A DNA stretch of 64,000 bases from a virus (lineage: Duplodnaviria; Heunggongvirae; Uroviricota; Caudoviricetes). Below, one piece after another: positions 29,659 through 44,772 of this stretch. How positions within the stretch are numbered: position 1 is the stretch's first letter; the number at the start of each line of letters is the position of its first letter. The DNA lies in IMG/VR virus record IMGVR_UViG_3300033233_000007. One strand, 5' to 3'. Below the pieces are notes generated by a model, which saw only the letters and a program-made list of their open reading frames with translations, ran no database searches and was not told the DNA's origin. The position numbers were made by a program, and so were the translations under genes.

Positions 29659-29695
29659 TGCTTGACTCTTTGCTTACAGATTGTACACTGTCGTT

Positions 29696-31034: not shown

Positions 31035-31659
31035 ATGAAGCGCCGTCCCTATCTCAAGCAGTCCCGGTATCTTGGCACCGTGGACCGCATCGATGCCGCC
31101 GCGCAGGCCGCCGACATCCGCTACGCCATTTTTGGCGGCACGGCGGTCAACTGGTATTCTAATCCCCCCGCCGACGATCGATATCGACGTAGCCGTAGAA
31201 CCCGACGAAGAAAGCATATCTGCGTTTATCGCCGAACTCGACCTGCGAGGCATCAGGTCCACAAGCCAAGAAATCCATGACCGGGGGATCGCGACCGTTA
31301 TCCTCGTGGATGGAAAGTCCAAGCTGAAGGTTGAGGTGATGTCCGGCTACGCGCCGAGCCATATCTCCGCCGTCGTTAACGCGGTCCGCGTCCGCGTGGG
31401 CGCCGTCTCGTTTAATCTCGTTACCCCGGAAGACCTGATCGTCAACAAGGCTATGGCCTACTTCGACCGGCATGAGCGCAAGGACATGTGCGCTGTGGTT
31501 GACTTGCTTCGTATCAAGCACGGCAAACTCGACGAGGATCACATGACCTCTCTCATGGGACGGGAGGGTCGCGAGGCCGTATTCCGCACGATCATGAACA
31601 TCGCCAAACGCGGCCTCAGAAAGTCGCCGTTGCTTGACCGCGCAAAGGCGCAGAGGTAG
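31035..31659 (+). pseudogene. nucleotidyltransferase (MNT/AbiEii-like) interrupted by a +1 frame change at a C6 tract (about 31157)
   Basis: Frame A reads ...AIFGGTAVNWYSNPP and frame B reads TIDIDVAVEPDE...; together they reconstruct a GGTA...TIDIDV nucleotidyltransferase motif. It is paralogous to 40449..41087. Confidence 0.5.
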
Positions 31660-33269: not shown

Positions 33270-33503
33270 ATGCCGATGACCCGTCTTGAAGTTTATCTCG
33301 CCCTGGAGAAAGTGATGATGGCGCTTGGCGACGCCGATGATTCGCTGGCGGATGAAGTCCGCGACGTCATGGACGGCATCTGGCACGGGCTTTCCGTCGA
33401 CGACCGCAAGGTTCTTGACAATCAGCAGATCGTGACGGGAAAGCAGTTCGTCGGTGAAGGGCTTACGCTCACGGTCGGCGATTCGTTGTGGACGCAGCTT
33501 TAG
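33270..33503 (+). CDS. hypothetical protein
   Basis: ORF. Confidence 0.3.
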   Translation: MPMTRLEVYLALEKVMMALGDADDSLADEVRDVMDGIWHGLSVDDRKVLDNQQIVTGKQFVGEGLTLTVGDSLWTQL

Positions 33504-33967
33504 CCACCGCGACGAGGCACGATAAGATGGACGCGACAATCGCAGAACATATTCGGCTTGCCAGAGAAGGACTACTGAATTATGAAGAGTCTGAAGCGCG
33601 CGGCGTCGAAGTTAGGTTTCCCTTTCGTCAGATGACCAAGAAATTCGGTAAGGCGTATATCGAATACTTGGAGGCCTCTTACGCCAGCTTCACCTTTAGC
33701 GTCTACTTCGGCGTTTATTATCCGCTGTCGGAGTGGCAAGTGCGCCATGGCGGGGTTCCCGACTCGTTTGTTGCGCGGATACGAGAAGTAGTAGGGGAGT
33801 GGTGGCTCTGCCAACCGGACCCGTCGAGCCCCAGTTCGTATACCACTTTCGTTCCCGGTGAAGATGATCCTATGAAATGCAGTAAGCCCGGAGCCGTGAT
33901 GGTGAAATTTAAGGACCTTTGGAAAACGGGATTCCCTGGCGAGGAAGGTCCGATGGTGGTGGCGTGA
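33488..33967 (+). CDS. hypothetical protein
   Basis: ORF. Confidence 0.35.
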   Translation: MDAALATATRHDKMDATIAEHIRLAREGLLNYEESEARGVEVRFPFRQMTKKFGKAYIEYLEASYASFTFSVYFGVYYPLSEWQVRHGGVPDSFVARIREVVGEWWLCQPDPSSPSSYTTFVPGEDDPMKCSKPGAVMVKFKDLWKTGFPGEEGPMVVA

Positions 33968-33977
33968 GCGGTCTATA

Positions 33978-34283
33978 CTAAACCGGTGGTTTCCAGTTCC
34001 GCCACTGCTCGCAGCCGTTAAGCACGCGCTGAAGCTCTTCCTTCACGGCCATCAGCCGCGCGTCCGGCTTGCGGAACTCGACGACTTCGATGAGACGGAT
34101 CATGCCGCGGGCGAAGTCGTCGATCTCTTCGTTCCAGCGATCGAGGACCTCGGCGTCATCCTTCGTAGCCGCCCAGCCGTGGAGGTCGCTGTCGACGCGG
34201 AACATTTCCTTCACGGACTGTTCGACGAAGCGGATGAGCCACTCGCCTTCGAGGGCGTTGCGGATGTCGGCGTCGATGTCCAT
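33978..34283 (-). CDS. hypothetical protein (101 aa), translationally coupled to the upstream HNH gene (TAATG)
   Basis: ORF MDIDADIRNALEGEW.... Confidence 0.35.
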   Translation of the reverse strand: MDIDADIRNALEGEWLIRFVEQSVKEMFRVDSDLHGWAATKDDAEVLDRWNEEIDDFARGMIRLIEVVEFRKPDARLMAVKEELQRVLNGCEQWRNWKPPV

Positions 34284-34882
34284 TACGGCTCCAGCGGCAC
34301 ATTCCAGTAGGCCCTGTTGACGAACGCGTCCCACGATTCGCGGCGGTGCATCACGGGCACGACGAGCGCGGGCGTCCACTTGGGCTTGACGGGCATCTTG
34401 CGCAGGCGCATCTTCGCCTCGACGGGCGTGCGGTTGGCCTTGCGCTTGTTGCAGTCGATGCACGCTACGACGCTGTTTTCCCAACTGGAGATGCCCCCGC
34501 GGGACCGGGGGATCACGTGGTCGAGCGTGAGGTTCGCCAGGCCCGGTTGAATGCCGCAGTACATGCAGACGTAGCGGTCGCGCTTGAAGATGTTGCGGCG
34601 GGAAAAGACGATCTCGCGTGCGGGGACGCCGTCGTAGAACGTCATGACCATGACTTCGGGTACGCGGATGCGCAGCCGGATCGTGGAGATGTGGGGTTTG
34701 TTCTCCTCCGCACGCACGGCCGCCCAGTCGTCGAAGTCGTAGGTCTGGTACGTCTTGGGCTCGACGAACTTTGCGGAGCCCTTGCACACGAGGTTGATGG
34801 CGTTCTTTACGGTGTCGAGGCGTACGGGTAGCCAGTTCTTGTTGAGGCTCAGGACCGGCCACGTCAGGCAATCGGCGTTCAT
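34283..34882 (-). CDS. HNH endonuclease
   Basis: HNH core CMYCG...LTLDHVIPRSRGG...CIDCNKRK. Confidence 0.75.
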   Translation of the reverse strand: MNADCLTWPVLSLNKNWLPVRLDTVKNAINLVCKGSAKFVEPKTYQTYDFDDWAAVRAEENKPHISTIRLRIRVPEVMVMTFYDGVPAREIVFSRRNIFKRDRYVCMYCGIQPGLANLTLDHVIPRSRGGISSWENSVVACIDCNKRKANRTPVEAKMRLRKMPVKPKWTPALVVPVMHRRESWDAFVNRAYWNVPLEP

Positions 34883-34918
34883 GGGGTCATCTTACCTTTA
34901 TATAGATGGAGATGCCAA

Positions 34919-34993
34919 TAGGCGCGGCTGGATTTGCACCAGCAAGCCGCCCGGTTTAAGCAGGCGAGGTATACTAATTCCCGTCACGCGCCC
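34919..34993 (-). tRNA. tRNA, anticodon UAA (Leu-type anticodon, class I structure, weak D-arm)
   Basis: Hand-folded cloverleaf. Acceptor GGGCGCG/CGCGCCT, anticodon arm GCCUG-CUUAAAC-CGGGC, T-arm GCUGG-UGCAAAU-CCAGC. Confidence 0.35.
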
Positions 34994-34995
34994 GT

Positions 34996-35071
34996 TGGTA
35001 TCCCCGCCCGGAGTCGCGCCGGGTTCTGCGCCTTCGGAGGGCGCCGTGTTTCTATCGTACACCACGGGGAC
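34996..35071 (-). tRNA. tRNA-Arg(CCG)
   Basis: Hand-folded cloverleaf. Acceptor GUCCCCG...CGGGGAU-A-CCA, anticodon loop CUCCGAA. Confidence 0.55.
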
Positions 35072-35125
35072 GCTCTTAAAGAAAACGGCCGTTTCCTTTA
35101 AGAGCGTTTCGAGCTTTCAAAGAGC

Positions 35126-35201
35126 GTTTGAAAAATGGTATCCCCGCGTGGACTCGGACCACGACTTCCGCCTTCGTAGGGCGGCGCTCTGTCCAATTGA
35201 G
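35126..35201 (-). tRNA. tRNA-Arg(ACG)
   Basis: Canonical cloverleaf. D-arm GCUCAAUUGGACAGAGC, anticodon loop CUACGAA, CCA encoded. Confidence 0.75.
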
Positions 35202-35232
35202 CTACGGGGACATCGTACTGTCAAAGAGCGAA

Positions 35233-35308
35233 TGGAACCCTCGGCGGGAGTTGCACCCGCATGATCCCGTTTAGGAAACGGGTGCCTCTTCTTTTCGGCC
35301 ATGAGGGC
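35233..35308 (-). tRNA. tRNA-Arg(CCU) (weak; overlaps the 3' end of the HNH ORF)
   Basis: Acceptor has one mismatch. Anticodon arm CCCGU-UUCCUAA-ACGGG, T-arm GCGGG-UGCAACU-CCCGC. Confidence 0.35.
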
Positions 35309-35897
35309 CATGGTTTCCAAAGAACGTACCTCCGGCGGCCCAGTTCCCAAACAGTCCAAGTTTTCGTGCTGCACGCATTCCGCCAACTACTTTAAGCCAC
35401 GCCTTGTACGGCATATCGCGCCGTGTCCAATTGCATCTGATGCAAGCGGGAACGACGTTGTCGCGGACGTGGCCCTTGGTATTGTCGATGCGATCAAGTG
35501 AAATCTTCATGTCTGATGGCGTTGCCCCACAATAAACGCATCCGCGTGAGATTGAGTCGCGCACAAAATCTCTGGTCAAGTCGAACAGAAGTCCTCGTTT
35601 TCTGTCTTCATCTCTAGCATCCTTCATTATGAGGAAGTCGCGATTTATGCCGAGACGTCTCCATCTCCTGAGTTTGGCTTTGTACTTAGCTTGTTTCCGG
35701 GTATAGGCTACCGGCGACGTTCGCCGCTTCCCCCGTAAGGTGTTGTCGCACGCCTTACATCGTGTTCGAGGCCACCGTTTTCCGTTCACAATTCGCTCGT
35801 AGAACATGTCTACTGGCTTGGGCCTCTTACACAACGTACAGCGTTTATGGTCGGACATAGTTCCGACCATAGTAGTGAACGGTGGTGGGGACTTCAA
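35271..35897 (-). CDS. HNH homing endonuclease inserted in the tRNA array
   Basis: HNH core CVYCG...ISLDRIDNTKGHVRDNVVPACIRCN. Start probably MVGTMSDHK. Confidence 0.7.
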   Translation of the reverse strand: MKSPPPFTTMVGTMSDHKRCTLCKRPKPVDMFYERIVNGKRWPRTRCKACDNTLRGKRRTSPVAYTRKQAKYKAKLRRWRRLGINRDFLIMKDARDEDRKRGLLFDLTRDFVRDSISRGCVYCGATPSDMKISLDRIDNTKGHVRDNVVPACIRCNWTRRDMPYKAWLKVVGGMRAARKLGLFGNWAAGGTFFGNHGPHGRKEEAPVS

Positions 35898-35919
35898 GGA
35901 ATTTGACCTTGAAGTCCCC
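35887..35919. repeat. 13-bp-stem hairpin GGGGACTTCAAGG-aatttga-CCTTGAAGTCCCC
   Basis: Direct reading. It lies between tRNA-Pro(CGG) and the HNH start. Confidence 0.8.
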
Positions 35920-35920
35920 G

Positions 35921-35994
35921 TCGGAGTCTCCGGACGTGCGCCGGGCCTATGCCTGTTCCCGAAACAGGTGGGGCGCTATCTCCCCATGACTCCG
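35921..35994 (-). tRNA. tRNA-Pro(CGG) (non-canonical T-loop)
   Basis: Acceptor CGGAGUC/GACUCCG, D-stem GGGG/CCCC, anticodon loop UUCGGGA. Confidence 0.45.
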
Positions 35995-36003
35995 GTCAAA
36001 GAA

Positions 36004-36074
36004 TCGGCCCGCCGGGATTCGCACCCGGATCAAGCTCTTATAAAGAGCCCGTTCTACTGTTGAACTACGAGCCG
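36004..36074 (-). tRNA. tRNA, anticodon UAU (Ile-type)
   Basis: Hand-folded cloverleaf. D-arm GUUCAACAGUAGAAC, anticodon loop UUUAUAA, T-arm CCGGG-UGCGAAU-CCCGG. Confidence 0.5.
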
Positions 36075-36075
36075 A

Positions 36076-36151
36076 TGGTCAGGGCGGCGGGACTCGCACC
36101 CGCGGTCTCCACGTCCCAAGCGTGGCGCGTTGGCTGCTACGCTACGCCCTG
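36076..36151 (-). tRNA. tRNA-Pro(UGG)
   Basis: Full cloverleaf. Anticodon arm CCACG-CUUGGGA-CGUGG, CCA encoded. Confidence 0.7.
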
Positions 36152-36152
36152 A

Positions 36153-36239
36153 TGGTGCGCTTGAGAGGATTTGCACCTCCACGAGTTTTACCTCACCGGC
36201 CCCTCAAGCCGGCGCGTCTGCTGGTTCCGCCACAGGCGC
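36153..36239 (-). tRNA. tRNA-Leu(GAG) (class II, long variable arm)
   Basis: Anticodon arm CCGGC-UUGAGGG-GCCGG with a 14-nt variable arm. CCA encoded. Confidence 0.6.
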
Positions 36240-36244
36240 GAAAT

Positions 36245-36330
36245 TGGTGGGCCCGAGAGGGTTTGCACCTCTACGCTTATTAGGCACCGGCTTCTGAGAC
36301 CGGCGTGTCTGCTAATTCCACCACGGGCCC
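36245..36330 (-). tRNA. tRNA-Leu(CAG) (class II)
   Basis: Anticodon loop CUCAGAA with a long variable arm. Acceptor GGGCCCG/CGGGCCC. Confidence 0.6.
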
Positions 36331-36331
36331 G

Positions 36332-36405
36332 TGCCCTCGACAGGATTCGCACCTGCATGCCGACGCTTTTGAGGCGTCGAGGTCTTCTAGTTGCCTCACG
36401 AGGGC
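36332..36405 (-). tRNA. tRNA, anticodon CAA (Leu-type anticodon but class I structure)
   Basis: Acceptor GCCCUCG/CGAGGGC is perfect. Anticodon arm GACGC-CUCAAAA-GCGUC, T-arm GCAGG-UGCGAAU-CCUGU. Confidence 0.4.
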
Positions 36406-36441
36406 GTGAGAATCTGTTTCTCAAAGAACGATCCGACTCCA

Positions 36442-36516
36442 TGGTGGCCCCGCTGGGACTCGCACCCAGGTCTCCTGCTTAAGAGGCAGGCCGTCTAGCT
36501 GCTGACATACGAGGCC
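36442..36516 (-). tRNA. tRNA-Lys(CUU)
   Basis: Anticodon arm CCUGC-CUCUUAA-GCAGG, T-arm CUGGG-UGCGAGU-CCCAG. CCA encoded. Confidence 0.65.
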
Positions 36517-36520
36517 GTCA

Positions 36521-36595
36521 TGGGGTCGGCGGGAATCGAACCCGCGTGAAGCTCGGTTAAAAGCCGAGTGCAAAGCCAGCGTTTGCTACGACCCC
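36521..36595 (-). tRNA. tRNA-Lys(UUU)
   Basis: Acceptor GGGGUCG/CGACCCC. Anticodon arm CUCGG-CUUUUAA-CCGAG, T-loop UUCGAUU. Confidence 0.6.
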
Positions 36596-36636
36596 TTGGA
36601 TTTGCCGTCGCGTTTCAAGCGACACCTCCTGAAAAA

Positions 36637-36710
36637 TGGCAGCCCGCCGCGGATTCGCACCGCGATCCTGACTTTGAAAAAGTCATATCCTGCTCTTAGA
36701 CGAGCGGGCC
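36637..36710 (-). tRNA. tRNA-Glu(UUC)
   Basis: Anticodon arm UGACU-UUUUCAA-AGUCA, T-arm CGCGG-UGCGAAU-CCGCG. CCA encoded. Confidence 0.6.
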
Positions 36711-36866
36711 ATCAGTGGGCGTAGCGGGGGAGCATCTTGCGCATACTCATCGGGAACCTGACCCTACTCTGGGCGGGTCTTTGCCAGCTAACCGCTTACC
36801 CTCGGGAGGCTTGGCCCGATCCCTTTGCGCCAGTGCTGGCAGCCCCCGCGCTTCGCCCACTAAAAT
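36711..36866 (-). ncRNA. about 150-nt structured non-tRNA element closed by long-range helices (GTGGGCG/CGCCCAC and GGGGG/CCCCC)
   Basis: No ORF and no cloverleaf could be built. Complementary termini at 36714-36735 and 36842-36862. Strand is assumed from the surrounding tRNAs. Confidence 0.3.
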
Positions 36867-36941
36867 TGGTACCCCGAAGGAGAGTCGAACTCCCGTTTTC
36901 GCCTTGAGAGGGCGGTGTCCTGGCCGCTAGACGACCGGGGC
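36867..36941 (-). tRNA. tRNA-Glu(CUC)
   Basis: Anticodon arm CCGCC-CUCUCAA-GGCGA, T-arm GGGAG-UUCGACU-CUCCU. CCA encoded. Confidence 0.6.
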
Positions 36942-36942
36942 A

Positions 36943-37017
36943 TGGAACCCACGGAGGGAATTGCACCCTCATGACCGATTTAGAGGATCGGCGTCCTGTC
37001 TGTTGAACGACGTGGGC
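36943..37017 (-). tRNA. tRNA-Arg(UCU) (C33 in the loop)
   Basis: Anticodon arm CCGAU-CCUCUAA-AUCGG, D-stem GUUC/GGAC. CCA encoded. Confidence 0.5.
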
Positions 37018-37018
37018 A

Positions 37019-37097
37019 TGGCTCCGGCGGCAGGAGTCGGACCTGCGACTGCCCGCTTAACAGGCGGGTACCTCAAACCGACAGAGGCATCACCGGA
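37019..37097 (-). tRNA. tRNA-Asn(GUU)
   Basis: Anticodon arm CCCGC-CUGUUAA-GCGGG, T-arm GCAGG-UCCGACU-CCUGC, with a long D-loop. Confidence 0.55.
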
Positions 37098-37098
37098 G

Positions 37099-37172
37099 TG
37101 GAGCCGCCGACCCGAATTGCACGGGCATCTGAACTTTACGAAAGTTCTGTTCTGCTGTTGAACTACAGCGGC
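37099..37172 (-). tRNA. tRNA-Thr(CGU)
   Basis: Anticodon arm GAACU-UUCGUAA-AGUUC, D-arm GUUCAACAGCAGAAC. CCA encoded. Confidence 0.6.
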
Positions 37173-37173
37173 A

Positions 37174-37250
37174 TGGAGGCCGCGGCGTGACTTCCACACG
37201 CTACATCCGCCTTTGCAGGGCGGCGCTTCGTATACTTTGGCTTCGCGGCC
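37174..37250 (-). tRNA. tRNA-Cys(GCA) (weak D-arm)
   Basis: Acceptor GGCCGCG/CGCGGCC. Anticodon arm CCGCC-CUGCAAA-GGCGG. Confidence 0.5.
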
Positions 37251-37271
37251 GTGAATCGGCAGATGGATGGA

Positions 37272-37363
37272 TGGCGGAAGGTGAGGGAGTTGCACCCCCG
37301 TCGCCCTTGCGAGGCGCACGGTTTAGCGGACCGTCCCGGCGAACTGTCATCCGGCTACCTTCC
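37272..37363 (-). tRNA. tRNA-Ser(GCU) (class II)
   Basis: Acceptor GGAAGGU/ACCUUCC. Anticodon arm ACGGU-CCGCUAA-ACCGU with an 18-nt variable arm. Confidence 0.6.
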
Positions 37364-37364
37364 G

Positions 37365-37450
37365 TGGGGGAGGGCAACGGAATTGCACCGTCACGCGAGA
37401 TGCGCGGTCCAGTTTTCGAGACTGGTTGGGCACTGCGCCCACTGCCCTCC
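37365..37450 (-). tRNA. tRNA-Ser(CGA) (class II)
   Basis: Anticodon arm CCAGU-CUCGAAA-ACUGG with a 16-nt variable arm. D-stem UGGG/CCCA. Confidence 0.6.
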
Positions 37451-37458
37451 GTGAAATT

Positions 37459-37532
37459 TGGTCCCGGCGGGTGGAGTCTCACCACCGTTTCATCTTCATG
37501 AGGGATGCGTCTTGATCTTAGACCACACCGGG
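37459..37532 (-). tRNA. tRNA-Met(CAU), elongator-type
   Basis: Anticodon loop CUCAUGA, T-arm GGUGG-UGAGACU-CCACC. CCA encoded. Confidence 0.55.
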
Positions 37533-37533
37533 A

Positions 37534-37608
37534 TGGAGCCGCCGGTCCGAGTTGCACGGACATGAACCTGTTTACAGGACAGGGGCCTTGCTGTTAGGCG
37601 ACGGCGGC
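37534..37608 (-). tRNA. tRNA-Thr(UGU)
   Basis: Acceptor GCCGCCG perfect. Anticodon arm CCUGU-CCUGUAA-ACAGG, T-arm GUCCG-UGCAACU-CGGAC. Confidence 0.6.
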
Positions 37609-37645
37609 AAAAAAAACGCCGGTGTTCTACTATTGAACTACACCG
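37609..37645 (-). terminator. truncated tRNA 5' half (acceptor + D-arm) forming a hairpin followed by T8; possible intrinsic terminator
   Basis: Minus strand reads CGGUGUAGUUCAAUAGUAGAACACCGGCG then UUUUUUUU. No anticodon arm, T-arm or 3' acceptor strand is present. Confidence 0.35.
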
Positions 37646-37766
37646 TGGAAAACGGTTGACCGGACTACGCGCGCTACGCCGGGTCGTTTTCTCGTGCGGA
37701 GGGTACTGCCCCCTCGTCTCCGGCTCTCACGGCGTCGTTTAATCCGACGCCATGAGAGAAGGAGAA

Positions 37767-37840
37767 TGGGGCCGCCAGCGGGTACTGCCCCCGCGCTTCG
37801 ATCTTACCAAGATCGCGGACTGCTTTTATCCTATGGCGGC
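37767..37840 (-). tRNA. tRNA-Thr(GGU) with atypical T-loop GGCAGUA
   Basis: Acceptor GCCGCCA/UGGCGGC. Anticodon arm CGAUC-UUGGUAA-GAUCG, T-arm GCGGG-GGCAGUA-CCCGC. CCA encoded. Confidence 0.4.
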
Positions 37841-37841
37841 A

Positions 37842-37916
37842 TGGTCCTCGCTGAGGGAATCGCACCCCCGTCCCGTGGGTGTAGGCCACGTGTTCTGGCT
37901 GCTGAACTAAGCGAGG
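37842..37916 (-). tRNA. tRNA-Val(UAC)
   Basis: Acceptor CCUCGCU perfect. Anticodon arm CGUGG-CCUACAC-CCACG, D-arm GUUCAGCAGCCAGAAC. Confidence 0.6.
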
Positions 37917-37917
37917 A

Positions 37918-37991
37918 TGGTCCTCGGCCGAGGAGTCGCGCCTCGGTTTCCAGCGTGTCATGCTGGCGTCCTCCTGTTGAACGAGCCGAGG
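37918..37991 (-). tRNA. tRNA-Val(GAC)
   Basis: Anticodon arm CCAGC-AUGACAC-GCUGG, T-arm CGAGG-CGCGACU-CCUCG. Confidence 0.6.
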
Positions 37992-37992
37992 A

Positions 37993-38070
37993 TGGTCGGG
38001 GTGACAGGGCTTGCACCTGCGGCCTCCAGCGCCCCACGCTGGCGCTCATCACTATCTGAGCTACACCCCG
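37993..38070 (-). tRNA. tRNA-Pro(GGG)
   Basis: Acceptor CGGGGUG perfect. D-arm GCUC...GAGC, anticodon arm CCAGC-GUGGGGC-GCUGG. Confidence 0.6.
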
Positions 38071-38071
38071 A

Positions 38072-38145
38072 TGGGGTGATCGCCCGGATTTGCACCGGGA
38101 CTGACAGGGCCACGGCCTGCCGTGCTTCTGTTACACCACGATCAC
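38072..38145 (-). tRNA. tRNA-His(GUG)
   Basis: Acceptor GUGAUCG perfect. Anticodon arm GCAGG-CCGUGGC-CCUGU, T-arm CCCGG-UGCAAAU-CCGGG. Confidence 0.5.
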
Positions 38146-38151
38146 GAAGAT

Positions 38152-38226
38152 TGGTCCGCCCGGTTGGAGTTGCACCAAACATCAGCCGCTTATCGGGCGG
38201 CCGTTCTACTGTTGAACTACGAGCGG
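38152..38226 (-). tRNA. tRNA-Ile(GAU)
   Basis: Anticodon arm GCCGC-CCGAUAA-GCGGC, D-arm GUUCAACAGUAGAAC. Confidence 0.55.
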
Positions 38227-38227
38227 A

Positions 38228-38301
38228 TGGACCGGCCAGCGGGTACTGCCCCCGCGCTTTCGCCTTGGCAAAGCGACAGACTTCTACTATCCGATGGCCG
38301 G
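38228..38301 (-). tRNA. tRNA-Gly(GCC) with atypical T-loop GGCAGUA
   Basis: Acceptor CCGGCCA/UGGCCGG. Anticodon arm UCGCU-UUGCCAA-GGCGA, T-arm GCGGG-GGCAGUA-CCCGC. Confidence 0.4.
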
Positions 38302-38302
38302 T

Positions 38303-38377
38303 TGGCTGGCCCGGAAGGATTCGCACCTTCACCGCGACGTTCAGAGCGTCGAATGCTGCGTGTTACACCACGAGCCA
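38303..38377 (-). tRNA. tRNA-Gln(CUG)
   Basis: Anticodon arm CGACG-CUCUGAA-CGUCG, T-arm GAAGG-UGCGAAU-CCUUC. Confidence 0.6.
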
Positions 38378-38378
38378 G

Positions 38379-38461
38379 TGGTGGGCGCGTACGGAATCGA
38401 ACCGCCTAGTCTTCGACAACGGGTTTACAACCCGCCTCCGATCCCACTCGGCAGCGCGCCC
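38379..38461 (-). tRNA. tRNA-Tyr(GUA) (class II)
   Basis: Acceptor GGGCGCG perfect. Anticodon arm GCGGG-UUGUAAA-CCCGU with a 12-nt variable arm. Confidence 0.55.
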
Positions 38462-39099
38462 TAGCGTGCTTTGTACGATCGATGCTTCTTTGAACGCTCG
38501 ACCATGCGCTCGACGTACCGGATCATTTTCCGCGGCGTGACGGCCGACGTGCGGTAGGCCCAGCGCCCTTCTGAAAGCGCCATGTGCCGCGTTGAGTGGT
38601 GCAGGTGGCAGACCCACTCGAGGTTCTTCGGCCTATTGTCGTCCTCGTTGCCGTTAATGTGATGGACCACAAGAAGGCTCGGGACTTTGATCTTGCAACT
38701 GACGCATCGGAGCTTTCGGCTGTTGTACTTGATCGCGCGGTTGCGAATGCTGGCGGTAGCCGCGCGCCCCTTGCCCCGGCCCCAGTTCCGCGGTCGCGCT
38801 ACGATGATGCCGCTGTCGAGCTTTTGCGCTTTGTGCCGGCACTCGCGGCTGCAGACGGGGGCGCCCTTGAGCGAATTTATGTAGCGCGGCGTGATTTCGA
38901 AGGGCTTGTCGCAGACCTCGCACCAGACGCGCATGCGCTTTCTGGAGAGTTTGTTACGGCATTCAAACGAACAGGCCTTTCGCTTCTTGTCGAACGCGGG
39001 GAAGACGAACTTTTCCTTACAGGCCCCGCAACGTCTCTCGACGCAGAGCCGCTTCTGGCCGTCGAAAGTCCGGGTCATGAACGGGCGCCGCCTGAGCAC
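38461..39099 (-). CDS. HNH endonuclease with N-terminal zinc fingers, inside the tRNA array
   Basis: HNH core VVHHINGNEDDNRPKNLEWVCHLHH, with multiple CxxC pairs. Confidence 0.65.
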   Translation of the reverse strand: MLRRRPFMTRTFDGQKRLCVERRCGACKEKFVFPAFDKKRKACSFECRNKLSRKRMRVWCEVCDKPFEITPRYINSLKGAPVCSRECRHKAQKLDSGIIVARPRNWGRGKGRAATASIRNRAIKYNSRKLRCVSCKIKVPSLLVVHHINGNEDDNRPKNLEWVCHLHHSTRHMALSEGRWAYRTSAVTPRKMIRYVERMVERSKKHRSYKAR

Positions 39100-39214
39100 G
39101 AGGGGATCGTACGCGGAAGTTAAGGGAAGTCAAGAGGATGGTGGACCCGCGGGGATGCGCGCCCCGATTTTCACGATGCCATCGTGATGTCCTCCTGGTT
39201 GGACGACGGGCCCA

Positions 39215-39288
39215 TGGTGGACGCGGAGGGAATCGCACCCTCATTTTCGCATTGCGAAAGCGACGGTCTCCTGTTGACCTACGCGCCC
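39215..39288 (-). tRNA. tRNA-Ala(CGC)
   Basis: Acceptor has the G3:U70 Ala identity pair. Anticodon loop UUCGCAA, T-arm GAGGG-UGCGAUU-CCCUC. Confidence 0.5.
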
Positions 39289-39289
39289 A

Positions 39290-39364
39290 TGGCCGGCGCG
39301 GCTGGTAACGCTCCAGCATCTCCTCCTCTTCAGGGAGGCGCTCAAACTTCTGAGCTACGCGCCG
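39290..39364 (-). tRNA. tRNA-Phe(GAA)
   Basis: Acceptor CGGCGCG perfect. D-arm GCUC...GAGC, anticodon arm CCUCC-CUGAAGA-GGAGG. Confidence 0.6.
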
Positions 39365-39372
39365 GTGAAAGA

Positions 39373-39446
39373 TGGTTCCGGGAGAAGGATTTACACCTTC
39401 GTCTTCTGATTCAAAGTCAGAAATCCTATTACTAGACGATCCCGGA
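39373..39446 (-). tRNA. tRNA-Gln(UUG)
   Basis: Anticodon arm UCUGA-CUUUGAA-UCAGA, T-arm GAAGG-UGUAAAU-CCUUC. Confidence 0.55.
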
Positions 39447-39447
39447 A

Positions 39448-39525
39448 TGGCGGGGATGACGAGAGTCGCACTCGCTAATTGCCGCCGTGACAGGGCGGTG
39501 GCTCCACTACTTTGCCCTCATCCCC
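39448..39525 (-). tRNA. tRNA-Asp(GUC)
   Basis: Acceptor GGGGAUG perfect. Anticodon arm CCGCC-CUGUCAC-GGCGG. Confidence 0.6.
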
Positions 39526-39720
39526 GTAGAGCAAAACGCGCCGGGTTGAGGATGTGAACACCGGCCTTGGGAACCTTGCCGCTATGTGCGGCCCTCCTCT
39601 AGTACCATCGGCCTAAGCCGACTTCCCGTTCGTTTCCGCGTTTTGCATGGCAGGCCAGCCTCGGTGCTGCCCCGAGCTTCCGGGTTTTGGAGACCCAGAT
39701 GGTCGCTGGACCGCGGCCTG

Positions 39721-39795
39721 TGGAAGCGGGAGGCCGAATTGCACGGCCTTGCGTGGCTTATGAGACCACGAGGATGACTTCACCCTCCTCCCGCA
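39721..39795 (-). tRNA. tRNA-Met(CAU) with a 1:72 mismatch (initiator-like)
   Basis: Anticodon loop CUCAUAA. T-arm GGCCG-UGCAAUU-CGGCC is perfect. U1/U72 are unpaired. Confidence 0.5.
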
Positions 39796-39796
39796 A

Positions 39797-39871
39797 TGGA
39801 CCGGCCAGCGGGCTCTGCCCCCGCGCGACGACTTTGGAAGAGTCGTATGCTGCTGGTTACATCATGGCCGG
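39797..39871 (-). tRNA. tRNA-Gly(UCC) with atypical T-loop GGCAGAG
   Basis: Acceptor CCGGCCA/UGGCCGG. Anticodon arm CGACU-CUUCCAA-AGUCG, T-arm GCGGG-GGCAGAG-CCCGC. Confidence 0.4.
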
Positions 39872-39967
39872 ACGAACTCCATCCATTCATCTGCCGATCC
39901 GTGTCGCTCCGCAAGGCCCTGGGCCCGGCGGTTCACGGCACGTTCTGCTTTTCAAAGAGTCGCGGGT

Positions 39968-39994
39968 AACAAAAAAGCCCTCGCAGGGAGGGCT
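39968..39994 (-). terminator. intrinsic terminator on the minus strand (GCCCUCCCUGCGAGGGC followed by UUUUUUG)
   Basis: Direct reading of the sequence. Confidence 0.65.
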
Positions 39995-40275
39995 TCGGAC
40001 TTCCGTATGTTCTTTGGACTACGGAGGTCCGTCGCCCTCTTGCCGCGTGGCCGCGGGCTGGCGATTCAGACTACCGAAAATCGACGTGGCCACGGGCCGC
40101 GGTAAGCGCCGATAGCGTGCCGCGAGTCGCTTCTGGCAATCTTCTCGCCTATGGTCGCGTGTTCTCATAGCCGTATCGCTTAGACCCGCATGGCTAATGC
40201 GAGTTCGTGAGAATTATAAAACAGGACCGCCCCGAAGCAAGAAAAATCCGCCATAAGGGCGTCGGTACGTTTTCC

Positions 40276-40304
40276 TTGACTTGGACGCACTACACGGGTA
40301 CACT
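40276..40304 (+). promoter_or_regulatory. sigma70-like promoter TTGACT-N17-TACACT
   Basis: Direct reading. It lies 8 nt upstream of the GTG at 40312. Confidence 0.5.
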
Positions 40305-40311
40305 ATGAGCC

Positions 40312-40452
40312 GTGAAGATCGTCCTCCCGACCTTGAAGTGCGTGCGCTGCGGCCACGCGTGGTATCCCCGTCGGCCTGAGACGCCGCCCCGTTGTGCCGG
40401 CTGCAAAAGCCCCTACTGGGACAGGCCGAGGCGCACGGGAGCGAAATCATGA
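40312..40452 (+). CDS. zinc-ribbon mini-protein (46 aa; CxxC...CxxC), paralog of 42921..43055
   Basis: Protein VKIVLPTLKCVRCGHAWYPRRPETPPRCAGCKSPYWDRPRR. Its stop overlaps the next ATG (ATGA). Confidence 0.5.
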   Translation: MKIVLPTLKCVRCGHAWYPRRPETPPRCAGCKSPYWDRPRRTGAKS

Positions 40453-41087
40453 GACCCGGTCCGTACAGGCGGTCAATGACGTCGATACGGATGAGCCATC
40501 ACAGTTTTGTGAAGGAGCCTGTTTTCATGAGAAATCCTGATGACCCGCTGGACTATCCGAGCCTCCGTGACCTGATCGCAGCCGCGCAACTGGCCTCCCG
40601 CATCGGAGAGGATCATGACGTGGACTCGGCGCTGGTCGGCGGCGTTGCGCTTCAACTATACGGCTCTCCTCGGTTTACTCGAGATGCGGACCTCGTGGCC
40701 GGTGCGGCGCTGGGCGACCCGTCGCCAATGCTGAAGCGTAACATCTTGAGTTTTGGCGGAGTCGCCTACGACACGCCGATCGGAGTCGGCGTCGACTGGA
40801 TCACTCGATCCGACGAGTACGCGCAATTGTACGACGCCGTGCTTGACGCTTCCGTGTCGACGAAGCATGGAATCAAGATCGCGCGGCCGGAGTATCTTGT
40901 CGCGATGAAGATGGCTGCGTCGCGGCCAAAGGATTATGAGGACCTCATGTGGCTTTTGGGCGCTCCCGGACTCGTGGACGTGACGAAGGCGCGGGAGATC
41001 GTGCGCGCGTTTCTCGGTGGGCGGTACGCCGTCGATCAGTTCAACGCCTCTCTTGAAGAAGCGAAATGGCGGGCCGGAAAAACGTGA
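40449..41087 (+). CDS. nucleotidyltransferase (MNT/AbiEii-like)
   Basis: Motif VGGVALQLYGSPRFTRDADLV of the GG(x)A...R.T.DxD type. Translationally coupled to the zinc-ribbon ORF. Confidence 0.65.
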   Translation: MRPGPYRRSMTSIRMSHHSFVKEPVFMRNPDDPLDYPSLRDLIAAAQLASRIGEDHDVDSALVGGVALQLYGSPRFTRDADLVAGAALGDPSPMLKRNILSFGGVAYDTPIGVGVDWITRSDEYAQLYDAVLDASVSTKHGIKIARPEYLVAMKMAASRPKDYEDLMWLLGAPGLVDVTKAREIVRAFLGGRYAVDQFNASLEEAKWRAGKT

Positions 41088-41354
41088 GTCCGCTTGACAG
41101 CACGGTCCGCCCGTGTAGAATCCTCTCGTTCTTTTACGTTCTGTATCGAGTGCGAAAGGAAGCGCCTTCGGGCTTCGTGCCGCAGGCGCCGAGCTTTCGA
41201 ACTCCAGACCTTGCCCTTGGGCCGCGAGGCCGCGGGCGAAGAAAACGCCGGCATTCGGCGACGGTGTTGTGATCGATCCGGGAAGCCTTCGTTGTAACCG
41301 GCACGGCTTCCGCATCCCGCAACTTCGGACGCCAAAAGGAATTCGGAGGACAGG

Positions 41355-42827
41355 ATGCCTTCATCCATTTCCCTCTCTGCGCTTCTCGAATACGACAAAG
41401 TCGCTTTCGACAAGACGCACGTCACGCACATGCTCGTGAATCTCGAGGGCGCCAAGCATGCCGCGTCGAATCGTAAGCCCCTCGCTATTTCGGTCTCTAT
41501 CGACTGCTCCAGCAGCATGGCCGGCCAGAAGATCGACTACGCGAAGCTCTCGCTCCAGAAACTCATCGAGCATCTGACGGCCGAGGACACGCTATCGATC
41601 GTCGGCTTCTCGAACTCCGTCTGGACGGTTCTTGCGCCCACGCGCATGGCGTCCGACGCCAAGGATTCGGCTAAGGCCAAGGTCCAGGGGCTTCGCTACC
41701 TGAGTTCGACCAACCTCTCCGGCGCGACCGTCGAGGCGTACGGCCATCTGCGGTCGGGCCGCGAAATCGCGGTCAAGGACGCGCTGGCTCGGGCCTTCCT
41801 CTTCACCGACGGCCTTCCGACGTCGGGGGAGACCCATCATGATCGGCTCATCGAGATCGCCGGCACGAAGCCCGAGGGCGCCGGCCTCACGGCCTTCGGC
41901 TACGGGACGGACCACGATCCCGAGCTTTTGCTGTCCATGGCCAAAAAAGGCGGAGGCAACTTCTACTTCGTCAAGACCCCCGACGAATGCCCGAGCTTCT
42001 TCGGCCGCGAACTGGGCGGTCTGCTCTCGTGTGTCGCCCAGGGCGTGAAGGTCAAGATCAAGGCCGCCGCCGGCGTCAAAATTCTCGAAGTCCTCAACGA
42101 CTTCGACGTGGACGCCAACAAAGAGCAGACCGAAGCGACGATCACCGTCGACGACGTCTACTCGGAGGAGACGCGGCGCGTGCTCGTGAAGCTCGAGCTT
42201 CCCAAGGTCTCCAAAGCCGTGGCTGCTCGGCCTTCGAAGGTTTGCGACGTCGAGATCGAGTTCCACGACCTGCGGATCAACGAGCCGAAGTCCGAGTCCG
42301 TCAAAGTCAAGATCGAGTACGTCAAGTCCGGCAACGAGCAGGCCAAGCCCCACAAGGAGGTCGAAGAGCAGATCGCGCTCCTTGTGGCCGCCAAGGCCCA
42401 TGAGGAGGCCCGCAAATTCGCCGACGCGGGTAACTTCGCCGGCGCCCAGAGCGTGCTTCGGAGCGCGGCGCTCGTCTGCAGTGCCGTCGGCACGCCCTTG
42501 ACCAAGGCTGTCGAGCACGAGATCAAAACGGGCGGGCTCATCATGGTCCAAGACGCCCAGGCCTACGCCCATGGCGGCGTGCAGTACGTCGTTGGAACGG
42601 CCGGGGGCTACAAAGCCGGTCGCGGTTACACGTCCGGCTCCGCTCAGCTTTTCGACACGGAGCGGCAGAGCGCGACAGCCGCGTCGTTCGGCGGTAGTAC
42701 CGTGCCGGCTGATCCGGCGCACATGCTCGGTCAGCCGATCGTGCATCCCGCACCGGTTGCCGTGCCGCCGAAGTTCAGCGCCGCCCTGCCGAAGGGGCCG
42801 AGTAAGCGCCGAAAGAACAGGCGCTAG
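41355..42827 (+). CDS. von Willebrand factor A (vWA) domain protein
   Basis: MIDAS motif ISVSIDCSSSM (DxSxS), then ...SIVGFSNS...FLFTDG. GGAGGACAGG RBS. Confidence 0.75.
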   Translation: MPSSISLSALLEYDKVAFDKTHVTHMLVNLEGAKHAASNRKPLAISVSIDCSSSMAGQKIDYAKLSLQKLIEHLTAEDTLSIVGFSNSVWTVLAPTRMASDAKDSAKAKVQGLRYLSSTNLSGATVEAYGHLRSGREIAVKDALARAFLFTDGLPTSGETHHDRLIEIAGTKPEGAGLTAFGYGTDHDPELLLSMAKKGGGNFYFVKTPDECPSFFGRELGGLLSCVAQGVKVKIKAAAGVKILEVLNDFDVDANKEQTEATITVDDVYSEETRRVLVKLELPKVSKAVAARPSKVCDVEIEFHDLRINEPKSESVKVKIEYVKSGNEQAKPHKEVEEQIALLVAAKAHEEARKFADAGNFAGAQSVLRSAALVCSAVGTPLTKAVEHEIKTGGLIMVQDAQAYAHGGVQYVVGTAGGYKAGRGYTSGSAQLFDTERQSATAASFGGSTVPADPAHMLGQPIVHPAPVAVPPKFSAALPKGPSKRRKNRR

Positions 42828-43626: not shown

Positions 43627-44772
43627 ATGCCCGACATCAGCCCCCACATCACGGTCAACAAGGACGACGTTCATAGCTTCGTCATCGATTCGATCCTGCT
43701 TGAGAATGTACGCACGGAAAAGCTCGTCTTCGCTGCGCACTGGAACGCGTCCATGAAAAACGGCGGCGACAAATTCCATCAAGCGTGTGAAATTGCGCGC
43801 AAGATCGGAACTCCGCGTTTCGTCGGGACGCACGGCAATTACGCGGACGGGCTCGTCCTGCGCGACCAGTCCGTCGTGAAGCTCTGGATCGGAAAGAAGC
43901 TCGACGTTGAAGTTTGGGCCAAGACGCAGGAAGATGCTACGAAAGAGGTACAGGCAATCCGAAAGATTGTCGAGCCCTATCTCATCACCCCTGAAAACGA
44001 GTCCGGGATCAGCGTGACCTTCTGGAACTCGAACACGAAGGGAGATGTCAAGCAGAACGAGCGCATCATCGCGTGTCCTTCATGGCAGGAAATCCGCGAG
44101 AACTACGGCTCTTCCGTCCAACCGGACATCGAGTCTCTGGTGGCAATGAAAAAGCCGTGGGAGGCCGGGAAGATCATTTTCTGGTCTGGGCCGCCGGGCA
44201 GCGGGAAAACTTTTGGAATTCGTTCTCTAATTCGTGAGTGGCACGGCGTTGTTGAACCGAACTACATCATGGACCCGGAGACGTTCTTCAGCGACGCGCA
44301 GTATATGAGCGAGGCCGTGATGACGACGAGCAATAAGTTTGACGAGGATGGGGATAGCAAGCCGTCGACGGCCGGCAAACTCTTCATCATCGAGGACATG
44401 CCCGATCTCATCCTGACGAAAACTCGCCTGACCCGTTGCGCCGAAATGGCCCGACTCCTGAACCTCTCCGACGGCTTTATCGGCCAGGGTTTTAACGCCA
44501 TCTTCCTCCTGACGACGAACGAGGACGTCCACGACGTCGACCCTGCGTTTCTCCGCGATGGCCGCATCCTTCAGCAGACAGCGTTCACGAAGTTCAACAT
44601 GTCGGCAGCGAAGGCGTGGCTCGGCAATCGCGGGATCGCCGCTGACCGCGCCGACGCCGCCATCTGCGGAGAGATGACGCTGGCCGAGCTTTACGCGGTG
44701 CTGCGGGGCAAGAGGCCCAAGTCCCATGTGAAAGACCGCAAGGTCGGCTTTGCCGTGGAGAAATCGTCATGA
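43627..44772 (+). CDS. AAA+ ATPase
   Basis: Walker A GPPGSGKT, Walker B LFIIEDMPD and sensor LLTTNE. Confidence 0.75.
   Translation: MPDISPHITVNKDDVHSFVIDSILLENVRTEKLVFAAHWNASMKNGGDKFHQACEIARKIGTPRFVGTHGNYADGLVLRDQSVVKLWIGKKLDVEVWAKTQEDATKEVQAIRKIVEPYLITPENESGISVTFWNSNTKGDVKQNERIIACPSWQEIRENYGSSVQPDIESLVAMKKPWEAGKIIFWSGPPGSGKTFGIRSLIREWHGVVEPNYIMDPETFFSDAQYMSEAVMTTSNKFDEDGDSKPSTAGKLFIIEDMPDLILTKTRLTRCAEMARLLNLSDGFIGQGFNAIFLLTTNEDVHDVDPAFLRDGRILQQTAFTKFNMSAAKAWLGNRGIAADRADAAICGEMTLAELYAVLRGKRPKSHVKDRKVGFAVEKSS

Follow-up and report, generated by a model that had tools for sequence, protein, structure and literature searches.

A near-complete phage tRNA array with a remodelled A18–G55 elbow that may resist T-loop tRNases

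Large phage tRNA clusters that carry homing endonucleases are known from T5, T4, mycobacteriophages, Streptomyces phages and huge phages. In cultured tailed phages such as DSS3_MAL1 (26 tRNAs), Comrade and S-CREM1, the tRNA genes share one strand, are separated by short spacers, number about one per anticodon and are accompanied by free-standing HNH or His-Me genes within or at the edge of the cluster. The same layout is found in the array described here, which comprises 39 tRNA genes, all on the minus strand, at positions 34919–39871 (4953 nt) of a 64,000-nucleotide stretch of DNA (hereafter the window) from the tailed-phage record IMGVR_UViG_3300033233_000007 (Caudoviricetes; IMG/VR). As described in a first-pass annotation made from the letters of the sequence, the array is large yet of a kind that is ordinary among phages; that annotation overlooked that most of its T-loops read UGC instead of UUC.

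Pseudouridine 55 (Psi55) has been described as the tRNA modification with the most universal conservation, and a contact links U55 to G18 (PMC7912444). Phage tRNAs have been reported to evade anticodon nucleases by mutations of the anticodon loop (van den Berg et al., 2023, eLife, PMC10264068; Azam et al., 2024, PMC11555353), and neither paper mentions the T-loop, the D-loop or the elbow. CbCash, a type III CRISPR-associated Schlafen nuclease, cuts most tRNAs within the T-loop UUC, 5′ of U55, and single substitutions of U54 or U55 abolish this cleavage (PMC13462974). The same 2026 study leaves open whether phage tRNAs are targets.

Position 55 was G in 32 of the 37 array genes that passed a strict cloverleaf parse, U in three (Tyr, Glu-CUC and Lys-UUU) and C in two (Asn and Arg-ACG). 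Because tRNA-Cys and tRNA-Trp also have G55, the total comes to 34 of 39 genes, with UUC retained in 3/39 and U55 replaced in 36/39. Other T-loop positions were largely kept in the 37 parsed genes (C56 in 35, A58 in 31 and U54 in 29). For the D-loop, the GG was present in all five genes lacking G55 and absent from 28 of the 32 parsed G55 genes, which have A18–G19 instead. Both changes can be read from Rfam alignments, in which the T-arm consensus GGUUCgAaUCC stands opposite GGUGCGAGUCC (GGUGCGA in place of GGUUCgA) and the D-loop consensus AaUGGUA stands opposite AACAGUA in the tRNAs of the window. As a control, the same parser returned UUC with GG for 46/46 tRNAs of the three cultured phages named above. 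The array thus has a remodelled elbow in 34 of 39 genes, with U55 changed to G, G18 changed to A, and G19, C56, U54 and A58 kept. Such an elbow appears not to have been described before; a full-text literature search found no account of A18–G55 phage tRNAs, a result that is provisional since coverage was incomplete.

To follow this elbow beyond the window, a search pattern of two G55 T-arms spaced one tRNA apart was used, which gave four matches in the window and none in shuffled sequence. The pattern matched at least 120 viral contigs and at least 120 contigs from genomes or metagenome-assembled genomes (MAGs), counts that are not prevalence, as all comparison loci were picked through the G55 motif. 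By our own estimate about 100 chance matches are expected in the 596-Gb genome set; 54 of the 120 listed genome loci hold no tRNA at all, and the remaining loci are arrays. Arrays made up of G55 genes throughout are found among the matches listed (L037, 18/18; L079, 18/18; L136, 16/16; L071, 15/15). Comparison of G55 with D-loop GG across the listed loci gave an odds ratio of 114 (p = 5e-138). Positions 18 and 55 were tabulated for 267 tRNAs of other loci whose D-loop is 7 nt long: A:G was seen in 148, G:U in 108 and C:G in six; G:C (two), U:G (one) and A:U (one) were rare, G:G did not occur (0), and G19 was near-invariant. A minority of tRNAs at G55 loci also swap 54:58 to A:U, as does tRNA-Phe of the window, whose AGCGTTA loop recurs in 10 tRNAs of other loci. 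The change at 18:55 is a statistically unambiguous, strict covariation that defines a tRNA class recurrent in many uncultivated phage arrays.

Searches of cultured phages returned canonical tRNAs. A distant blastn search with part of the array against GenBank phages gave no cultured phage with G55 tRNAs, and its matches were mostly to canonical tRNA-Glu; in the cultured phages matching the Leu tRNAs (DSS3_MAL1 and S-CREM1) all tRNAs were canonical. The exact T-arm pattern of the GGCAG class had no match in viral contigs. In arrays with at least 70% G55 (L011–L250), retention of U55 was concentrated in Met (7/19), Glu (4/17) and Ser (2/4) tRNAs, where demands of identity or initiation may constrain the elbow. 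The DSS3_MAL1 array also includes a tRNA with anticodon CUA (L251:4477-4550), annotated as tRNA-Pyl and resembling an amber suppressor.

Standard tools detect the array incompletely. ARAGORN at default settings called 28 tRNAs, all on the minus strand and spanning 34919–39446, and the gathering threshold of Rfam RF00005 (29 bits) was reached by 22 genes in a whole-window search and 24 in an 8-kb run, so that 11 of the 39 genes are missed by ARAGORN and 15–17 by Rfam. Relaxed ARAGORN settings gained Ser-CGA, Val-GAC and Ala-GGC, and three long-arm (type II) tRNAs received sub-threshold Rfam scores, as tRNA-Sec. Since several of the gaps between called genes were tRNA-sized, a cloverleaf parser was written that leaves loop sequences unconstrained. 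A covariance model, R1, was also trained on 80 G55-type tRNAs, all taken from other loci, and run with filters off. R1 gave 38 minus-strand matches (E ≤ 0.02), all within the array, and no credible match elsewhere in 33500–41500. Among the 15–17 genes below the Rfam threshold, 14–16 score 12.6–54.6 bits with R1, and those missed by both ARAGORN and Rfam but recovered in this way are Cys-GCA, Gly-UCC, Thr-GGU, Gly-GCC, the second Met and Pro-CGG (Table 1). In the 38 genes aligned to R1, 98.4% of alignment cells were paired, compared with 55.8% in shuffles and 39–49% with slid partners, although an alignment fitted to the model favours pairing; two-sided compensatory cells numbered 308 against 93 expected, with two-sided changes at 20 of 21 pairs.

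The thirty-ninth gene, tRNA-Trp(CCA), was identified through 13 homologs in other arrays (L047, L150, L225 and L253–L262), among which acceptor and T-stem changes are compensatory. The homologs conserve A1–U72, G73 and the CCA anticodon loop; their T-loop GGCAGCA (G54, G55 and G58) is invariant and their D-loop, CAGC(UU), is 4–6 nt long. ARAGORN and Rfam detect no member of this family. In the window copy, the 3′ acceptor strand contains one additional U, and this copy may be impaired. The weakest member of the array is tRNA-Pro(CGG), which is possibly decaying. A T-arm, GCGGG-GGCAGTA/GGCAGAG-CCCGC, is identical in three window genes, which suggests local duplication or gene conversion. The ortholog of tRNA-Gly(UCC) in locus L144 has the T-loop TGCAACT, the acceptor TGCGGGA/TCCCGCT of the initiator-like tRNA-Met is also found in Met tRNAs of other G55 arrays, and tRNA-Glu(CUC), a U55 gene, is 80–84% identical to enterobacterial and phage tRNA-Glu. 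Spacers between tRNAs are at most 8 nt at 28 of 38 junctions, and of the 37 strictly parsed genes, 32 encode their 3′ CCA. The first-pass count of about 37 tightly packed minus-strand genes in about 5 kb is therefore sound, at 38 covariance-model hits plus Trp. Both Rfam (22–24) and R1 (38) exceed the floor of about 20 covariance-model calls that the annotation had set itself, and the ARAGORN run it proposed over this region returned the 28 default calls given above. All 35 of its anticodons were recovered, even for non-canonical genes that neither ARAGORN nor Rfam detects; its list lacks Leu-UAA, Leu-CAA, Trp-CCA and a second Ala.

The decoding capacity of the array was compared with codon usage in 13 confident phage genes (6605 codons) under standard wobble rules. 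The 39 genes span 20 amino acids, and the 38 anticodons used in this analysis cover all 20 amino acids and read 96.7% of the codons that the phage itself uses; those left unread (GCA, CUA, UCU, UCA and UCC) are few and mostly A/U-ending. The phage has a GC3 of 0.757. Of the codons cognate to the 38 anticodons, 14 end in C, 13 in G, ten in A and one in U, giving 27 of 38 with a final G or C; the ten A-ending matches include the rare codons AUA, UUA, AGA and GGA. The array is a near-complete replacement tRNA pool and not a supplement for A/U-ending codons, and it duplicates decoders with which a GC-rich host should already be well supplied. The comparison of anticodon supply with phage codon usage suggested in the first-pass annotation thus yielded a near-complete match, but its proposal that the array serves A/U-ending codons that a high-GC host lacks is contradicted by the same figures.

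Among the loci listed, the tRNAs of the window are closest in similarity to arrays of Verrucomicrobiota loci, which makes that phylum a plausible host on present similarity. Verrucomicrobiota bins account for 21 of the 27 listed genome loci with at least five G55 tRNAs, some on contigs of 0.2–3.4 Mb; G55 tRNAs also occur in viral contigs with a GC content of 0.30–0.69 and in contigs binned to other phyla. Four isolated tRNAs in the Verrucomicrobiota loci are canonical. As these lie in the same HNH/RtcB modules as the arrays, they were not counted as host genes, and the use of isolated tRNAs as a proxy for host tRNAs was dropped.

The three HNH genes that the first-pass annotation had placed in and beside the array, one of them overlapping a tRNA, are borne out by Pfam or PHROG matches (Table 1). 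The 3′ end of the endonuclease VII/HNH-like gene overlaps tRNA-Arg(CCU) by 38 nt; this gene has no Pfam match, and a gene caller places its start at 35870. The stop codon of the HNH_3-type gene abuts tRNA-Tyr. Promoter-like sites precede two of the three genes, at 39133–39106 for the HNH_3-type gene and at 34918–34889 for the gene at the 3′ edge of the array. The HNH domains of the window nucleases resemble those of DNA nucleases, e.g. IscB and the Cas9 HNH domain. Homologs of the edge gene (31–50% identity) were found at 36 other tRNA-array loci, on the tRNA strand in 36/36, and lie inside the array at 16 loci and at its edge at 20. These varying positions would fit mobility and, equally, a conserved array function; the family could consist of homing endonucleases that specialise in tRNA arrays, or it could form a functional part of the array module. 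Loci with such homologs include L051, L063, L064, L131, L155, L167, L174, L176, L187, L207, L228 and L244.

Related G55 arrays also have RNA-repair neighbours. Genes for RtcB (Pfam, 2e-82) and Ro60/TROVE lie directly beside such arrays, and loci with one or other of these genes include L176:1669-5739, L151:867-2306, L187, L207, L079, L118, L136, L155, L208 and L244; in Verrucomicrobiota MAG contigs the gene order HNH–RtcB–TROVE–array recurs. Within the listed loci, TROVE adjoins 9/39 G55-rich arrays and 3/60 U55-rich arrays (p = 0.011), the latter being loci that also hold some G55 genes. The association of Ro60, RtcB and a conserved HNH gene with the arrays hints at a larger mobile module that keeps translation running under attack.

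Taken together, the elbow and the decoding capacity invite an explanation in terms of nuclease escape. A18–G55 would take the place of the G18–Psi55 tertiary contact, with the N6 amino group of adenine donating to O6 of guanine, and the contact is probably preserved; by this substitution the L-shape would be kept and the universal UUC (T-Psi-C) signature erased. Most likely, the benefit would be to withstand enzymes whose recognition or cleavage site on tRNAs is U54–U55, of which Cash is an example. A nuclease directed at the T-loop destroys the whole host tRNA pool, so a phage facing it would need a whole resistant set, which would explain why the array is so large and the U55 change so uniform. 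The HNH genes would be mobile or array-associated nucleases riding in the array. A replacement set whose A18–G55 elbow resists T-loop tRNases such as Cash is, in our view, the best explanation of the locus, at somewhat short of an even chance. A little more tentatively, A18–G55 may mark a widespread class of “armoured” phage tRNA that escapes T-loop UUC tRNases (such as those of Schlafen/Cash or CdiA type) with the L-shape kept, its replacement sets, often with Ro60, RtcB and co-oriented HNH genes, forming a mobile translation module for counter-defence that would be prevalent among phages infecting Verrucomicrobiota and related bacteria of soil and fresh water. The RtcB and Ro60/TROVE neighbours are in line with such a counter-attack role.

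Several points weigh against nuclease escape. The resistance of G55 tRNAs to nucleases is wholly a matter of inference, no Cash or Schlafen gene is linked to the presumed hosts, and Verrucomicrobiota are not mentioned in the Cash paper (PMC13462974). The Tyr, Glu-CUC and Lys-UUU tRNAs keep U55 and would stay vulnerable, and the array offers no tRNA that reads Ser-UCC, which makes up 1.4% of codons. For RtcB, enrichment at G55-rich arrays falls short of significance (p = 0.26), tblastn found no homolog of RtcB or TROVE in the window, the U55-rich set used for the TROVE comparison is a mixed one, and the choice of loci by motif means that how common the class is does not follow from its counts. 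The weakest point is that host tRNAs and nucleases lie outside the data examined.

The elbow could instead serve independence from host maturation, with G55 and A18 bypassing TruB (Psi55) and TrmH (Gm18). TruB also acts as a tRNA folding chaperone, and a burst of dozens of phage tRNAs could fold and work without host modification enzymes becoming limiting. This reading gains from the fact that conserved elbow-modifying enzymes act on the altered positions (PMC7912444), from a compensated A18:G55 swap that keeps the contact, and from the encoded CCA ends, which likewise lessen reliance on host maturation. However, U54, the substrate of TrmA, is retained along with A58, canonical elbows suffice for cultured phages with arrays of 26 tRNAs, and the Ro60/RtcB association is left unexplained; overall, we regard it as rather unlikely. 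That G55–A18 is the host lineage's own tRNA type, e.g. that of Verrucomicrobiota, copied by the phage, would fit the 21 of 27 genome loci in bins of that phylum, on contigs of up to 3.4 Mb. Yet the arrays resemble mobile elements (one strand, one gene per anticodon, HNH/RtcB/TROVE neighbours), the same contigs and arrays also hold canonical U55/GG tRNAs, the class extends to viral contigs across a wide GC range and to bins of other phyla, and Psi55 is so universal that a well-studied phylum without it would probably be known, which makes a host origin improbable. The first-pass idea that the array tops up tRNAs for A/U-ending codons poorly read by a GC-rich host can call on the ten anticodons that match A-ending codons, rare ones included, but it meets a GC-rich phage, mostly G/C-cognate anticodons, 96.7% coverage and unread codons that are themselves mostly A/U-ending, and it offers no account of G55; we give it very little credence.

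A strategy of replacing and destroying, in which the phage, perhaps by means of an array-linked nuclease such as the conserved HNH family, disables the tRNAs of its host at the U55 elbow while translating with a set of its own that is immune, would make sense of a near-complete replacement set, of the 36/36 co-orientation of the edge HNH family with tRNA arrays, and of the two AbiEii-like nucleotidyltransferases that flank the array. No window nuclease has demonstrated or predicted tRNA specificity, though, the HNH domains resemble those of DNA nucleases, and the AbiEii matches are weak (1e-4 to 1e-7), so that this strategy is highly improbable. Scarcely better placed is a neutral founder effect, by which the array was duplicated from one G55 ancestor without adaptive value: the T-arm identical in three genes would agree with it, but isoacceptor-specific architectures are kept (type II Leu, Ser and Tyr; the Trp identity set), covariation is strict, with G18:G55 in 0/267, and arrays that differ widely in GC content and sequence share the variant. 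Finally, the G55 RNAs might be not translation adaptors but decoys for tRNA-targeting enzymes or donors for non-ribosomal reactions. The non-proteinogenic tRNA-Gly of Staphylococcus aureus likewise lacks G18, G19, U55 and C56 (PMC4574755), but 38 anticodons matched to phage codon usage, together with the retained G19:C56, U54:A58, CCA ends and identity elements, make a non-adaptor role hardly credible.

The wider window belongs to a deeply divergent tailed phage. A megablast search of 34000–41000 against GenBank phages gave no match, and the DnaE-type polymerase is less than 31% identical to that of any deposited phage; a primase-helicase, RecA, a gp32-like SSB, SbcD (PHROG/Pfam) and methylases are also encoded. 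The sequence is present in the Logan assembly of SRR10861649 and on a 125.8-kb contig. A 312-aa neighbour protein has no relatives in viral contigs, and among 5.8 billion proteins it has only two hits, one from this same phage and the other a 66% relative encoded on a contig of 1.6 kb. The gene at 47222–49915, labelled terminase large subunit by PHROG, proved to be a HerA/FtsK-type ATPase with an intein; its relatives without an intein are about 500 aa long and lie beside portal and tail genes, and eight loci related through this ATPase (L003–L010) hold no tRNAs. The AbiEii/MenT family, to which the two flanking nucleotidyltransferase-fold proteins show weak similarity, includes toxins that modify tRNA 3′ ends. 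A “putative nucleotidyltransferase” is also annotated just upstream of the tRNA array of DSS3_MAL1. PADLOC found no defence-system match for the VWA-domain protein and the DUF5925/AAA ATPase, and PADLOC and NCBIfam together returned only weak AbiEii and SNase-like matches for the neighbours of the array.

Two structured inserts interrupt the tRNA genes. The 156-nt insert folds into a long branched rod (minimum free energy, MFE, -72.7 kcal/mol; z = -3.0; 0/200 shuffles as stable), and the 158-nt insert (MFE -66.6 kcal/mol; z = -5.0; 0/200 shuffles as stable) consists of a perfect 14-bp hairpin with the loop GAUUAAA, a T-arm-like hairpin whose loop GGCAGUA is shared with neighbouring tRNAs, and a hairpin followed by U8, which is terminator-like in spite of its mid-array position. 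Neither has a homolog in about 260 loci by BLAST; the 156-nt insert has no Rfam match at E ≤ 10, and the 158-nt insert matches no Rfam family, with spurious microRNA-like hairpins at most. Their identification as a missing Ser(GGA/UGA) tRNA, a Y-RNA-like RNA or a tRNA remnant could not be supported. The 122-nt spacer between Trp and Asp (39526–39647, minus strand) contains a partial tRNA-like stem, GAGGAGG...CAUCCUC, and a 64-nt spacer (35072–35135, minus strand) forms a perfect 15-bp hairpin, GCUCUUAAAGGAAAC/GUUUUCUUUAAGAGC.

Table 1. Features of the tRNA array and its surroundings in the window. T-loops are given as DNA; scores are in bits.
Feature	Position	Strand	T-loop	ARAGORN	Rfam	R1	Remarks
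tRNA-Gly(UCC)	39797..39871	-	GGCAGAG	missed	missed	38.1	G54, G55, G58; strict parse
tRNA-Met(CAU), initiator-like	39721..39795	-	TGCAATT	missed	missed	24.8	U1xU72 mismatch; parse
tRNA-Trp(CCA), odd class	39648..39719	-	GGCAGCA	not called	not called	not called	4-nt D-loop CAGC; A1-U72; G73
tRNA-Asp(GUC)	39448..39525	-	TGCGACT	missed	40.0	34.1	
tRNA-Gln(UUG)	39373..39446	-	TGTAAAT	called	57.6	46.0	
tRNA-Phe(GAA)	39290..39364	-	AGCGTTA	called	52.1	51.2	54:58 swapped to A:U
tRNA-Ala(CGC)	39215..39288	-	TGCGATT	called	60.4	55.7	
tRNA-Ala(GGC)	39139..39213	-	CGCGCAT	-ps80 only	44.4	43.3	
HNH_3-type endonuclease gene	38461..39099	-					inside array; Pfam PF13392 4e-8
tRNA-Tyr(GUA), type II	38379..38461	-	TTCGATT	called	38.0 (Sec-like)	17.7	canonical; D-loop GG
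tRNA-Gln(CUG)	38303..38377	-	TGCGAAT	called	48.7	54.8	
tRNA-Gly(GCC)	38228..38301	-	GGCAGTA	missed	missed	30.8	strict parse
tRNA-Ile(GAU)	38152..38226	-	TGCAACT	called	51.4	57.6	
tRNA-His(GUG)	38072..38145	-	TGCAAAT	called	47.7	41.1	
tRNA-Pro(GGG)	37993..38070	-	TGCAAGC	called	51.3	59.5	
tRNA-Val(GAC)	37918..37991	-	CGCGACT	-ps80 only	absent from output	37.8	
tRNA-Val(UAC)	37842..37916	-	TGCGATT	called	55.0	60.4	
tRNA-Thr(GGU)	37767..37840	-	GGCAGTA	missed	missed	37.3	strict parse
158-nt structured insert	37609..37766	-					between tRNA-Thr(GGU) and tRNA-Thr(UGU)
tRNA-Thr(UGU)	37534..37608	-	TGCAACT	called	absent from output	54.6	
tRNA-Met/Ile2(CAU)	37459..37532	-	TGAGACT	called	47.9	39.5	
tRNA-Ser(CGA), type II	37365..37450	-	TGCAATT	-ps90	38.1 (Sec-like)	12.6	
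tRNA-Ser(GCU), type II	37272..37363	-	TGCAACT	called	28.7 (Sec-like)	20.1	
tRNA-Cys(GCA)	37174..37250	-	TGGAAGT	missed	missed	47.4	D-arm irregular
tRNA-Thr(CGU)	37099..37172	-	TGCAATT	called	54.1	53.5	
tRNA-Asn(GUU)	37019..37097	-	TCCGACT	called	32.1	41.8	C55; D-loop GG
tRNA-Arg(UCU)	36943..37017	-	TGCAATT	called	47.0	55.7	
tRNA-Glu(CUC)	36867..36941	-	TTCGACT	called	51.8	39.2	canonical; D-loop GG
156-nt structured insert	36711..36866	-					between tRNA-Glu(CUC) and tRNA-Glu(UUC); stems GUGGGCG/CGCCCAC and GCGGGGG/CCCCCGC
tRNA-Glu(UUC)	36637..36710	-	TGCGAAT	called	absent from output	41.4	
tRNA-Lys(UUU)	36521..36595	-	TTCGATT	called	54.8	46.6	canonical; D-loop GG; CCA not encoded
tRNA-Lys(CUU)	36442..36516	-	TGCGAGT	called	58.4	64.1	
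tRNA-Leu(CAA)	36331..36405	-	TGCGAAT	called	38.7	53.0	variable loop short
tRNA-Leu(CAG), type II	36245..36330	-	TGCAAAC	called	49.1	35.5	
tRNA-Leu(GAG), type II	36153..36239	-	TGCAAAT	called	42.0	27.6	
tRNA-Pro(UGG)	36076..36151	-	TGCGAGT	called	62.8	73.8	Rfam alignment shows U55G, G18A
tRNA-Ile(UAU)	36003..36075	-	TGCGAAT	called	59.0 (aligned)	58.2	
tRNA-Pro(CGG)	35918..35994	-	CGCACGT	missed	missed	20.7	R1 E 4e-5 to 7e-5; parse with 4-bp T-stem
Endonuclease VII/HNH-like (His-Me finger) gene	35271..35897	-					inside array; PHROG 1035 1.4e-20 and several HNH PHROGs
tRNA-Arg(CCU)	35233..35308	-	TGCAACT	called	43.0	56.7	
tRNA-Arg(ACG)	35136..35211	-	TCCGAGT	called	61.2	53.9	C55; D-loop GG
tRNA-Arg(CCG)	34996..35071	-	CGCGACT	called	absent from output	47.1	
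tRNA-Leu(UAA)	34919..34993	-	TGCAAAT	called	absent from output	40.2	variable loop short
HNH endonuclease gene	34283..34882	-					3′ edge of array; Pfam HNH_5 (PF14279) 1e-12, HNH (PF01844) 7e-12
IS605 OrfB/TnpB (Cas12f-like) gene	29681-30898	+					one each side of array region
IS605 OrfB/TnpB (Cas12f-like) gene	44783-45994	-					one each side of array region
Small nucleotidyltransferase-fold protein	31093-31659	+					flanks array; weak AbiEii (1e-4 to 1e-7) and DUF2204 similarity
Small nucleotidyltransferase-fold protein	40527-41087	+					flanks array; weak AbiEii (1e-4 to 1e-7) and DUF2204 similarity
VWA-domain protein	41355-42827	+					just upstream of array
DUF5925/AAA ATPase	43627-44772	+					just upstream of array
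HerA/FtsK-type ATPase	47222-49915	+					DUF87/HerA_C; intein with LAGLIDADG domain

Few nucleotides in biology are as conserved as U55/Psi55 and G18, and a large, naturally occurring class in which both are replaced with compensation would matter for that reason. As an alternative natural solution for the tRNA elbow, it would be useful for structural biology and for the design of orthogonal or nuclease-resistant tRNAs. It also offers a testable answer to the question raised by the authors of the Cash study, namely whether phage tRNAs can escape T-loop cleavage, and, if true, would extend phage-tRNA counter-defence from single anticodon-loop mutations to whole rewired sets. The array genes that ARAGORN and Rfam miss expose an annotation blind spot, as a result of which tRNA counts in uncultivated phages are probably underestimated.

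Compared with the clusters of cultured phages, in which elbows are canonical throughout, the window has A18–G55 in 34 of 39 genes and belongs to a phage without a close relative. The phage tRNAs known to evade anticodon nucleases share the concept proposed here, in that substitutions at the recognition site of a host tRNase allow a depleted pool to be replenished; there the substitutions affect the anticodon loop of a few isoacceptors, whereas in the window a universal structural position is altered in nearly the whole set, with a compensating change in its partner, and resistance is what we infer. Cash, the putative antagonist, cuts at U54–U55–C56, the position altered in the window tRNAs, and was studied with a Chloroflexi protein produced in E. 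coli; it is not known to be linked to the host of this phage. In the bacterial Rsr (Ro60)–Y RNA–RtcB operon, the same genes are found as beside the G55 arrays of L176, L151, L187, L207, L079 and L118, but the operon has tRNA-like Y RNAs where the related loci have whole tRNA arrays, and the window is without both genes. The closest cellular precedent is the staphylococcal non-proteinogenic tRNA-Gly (PMC4574755), which serves cell-wall synthesis and has lost both elbow contacts (U18U19 or C18U19) in Gly only. Such a loss of both 18:55 and 19:56, limited to one amino acid, was not found in the array, where G19:C56 is kept, 18:55 is swapped with compensation and the change extends to all amino acids.

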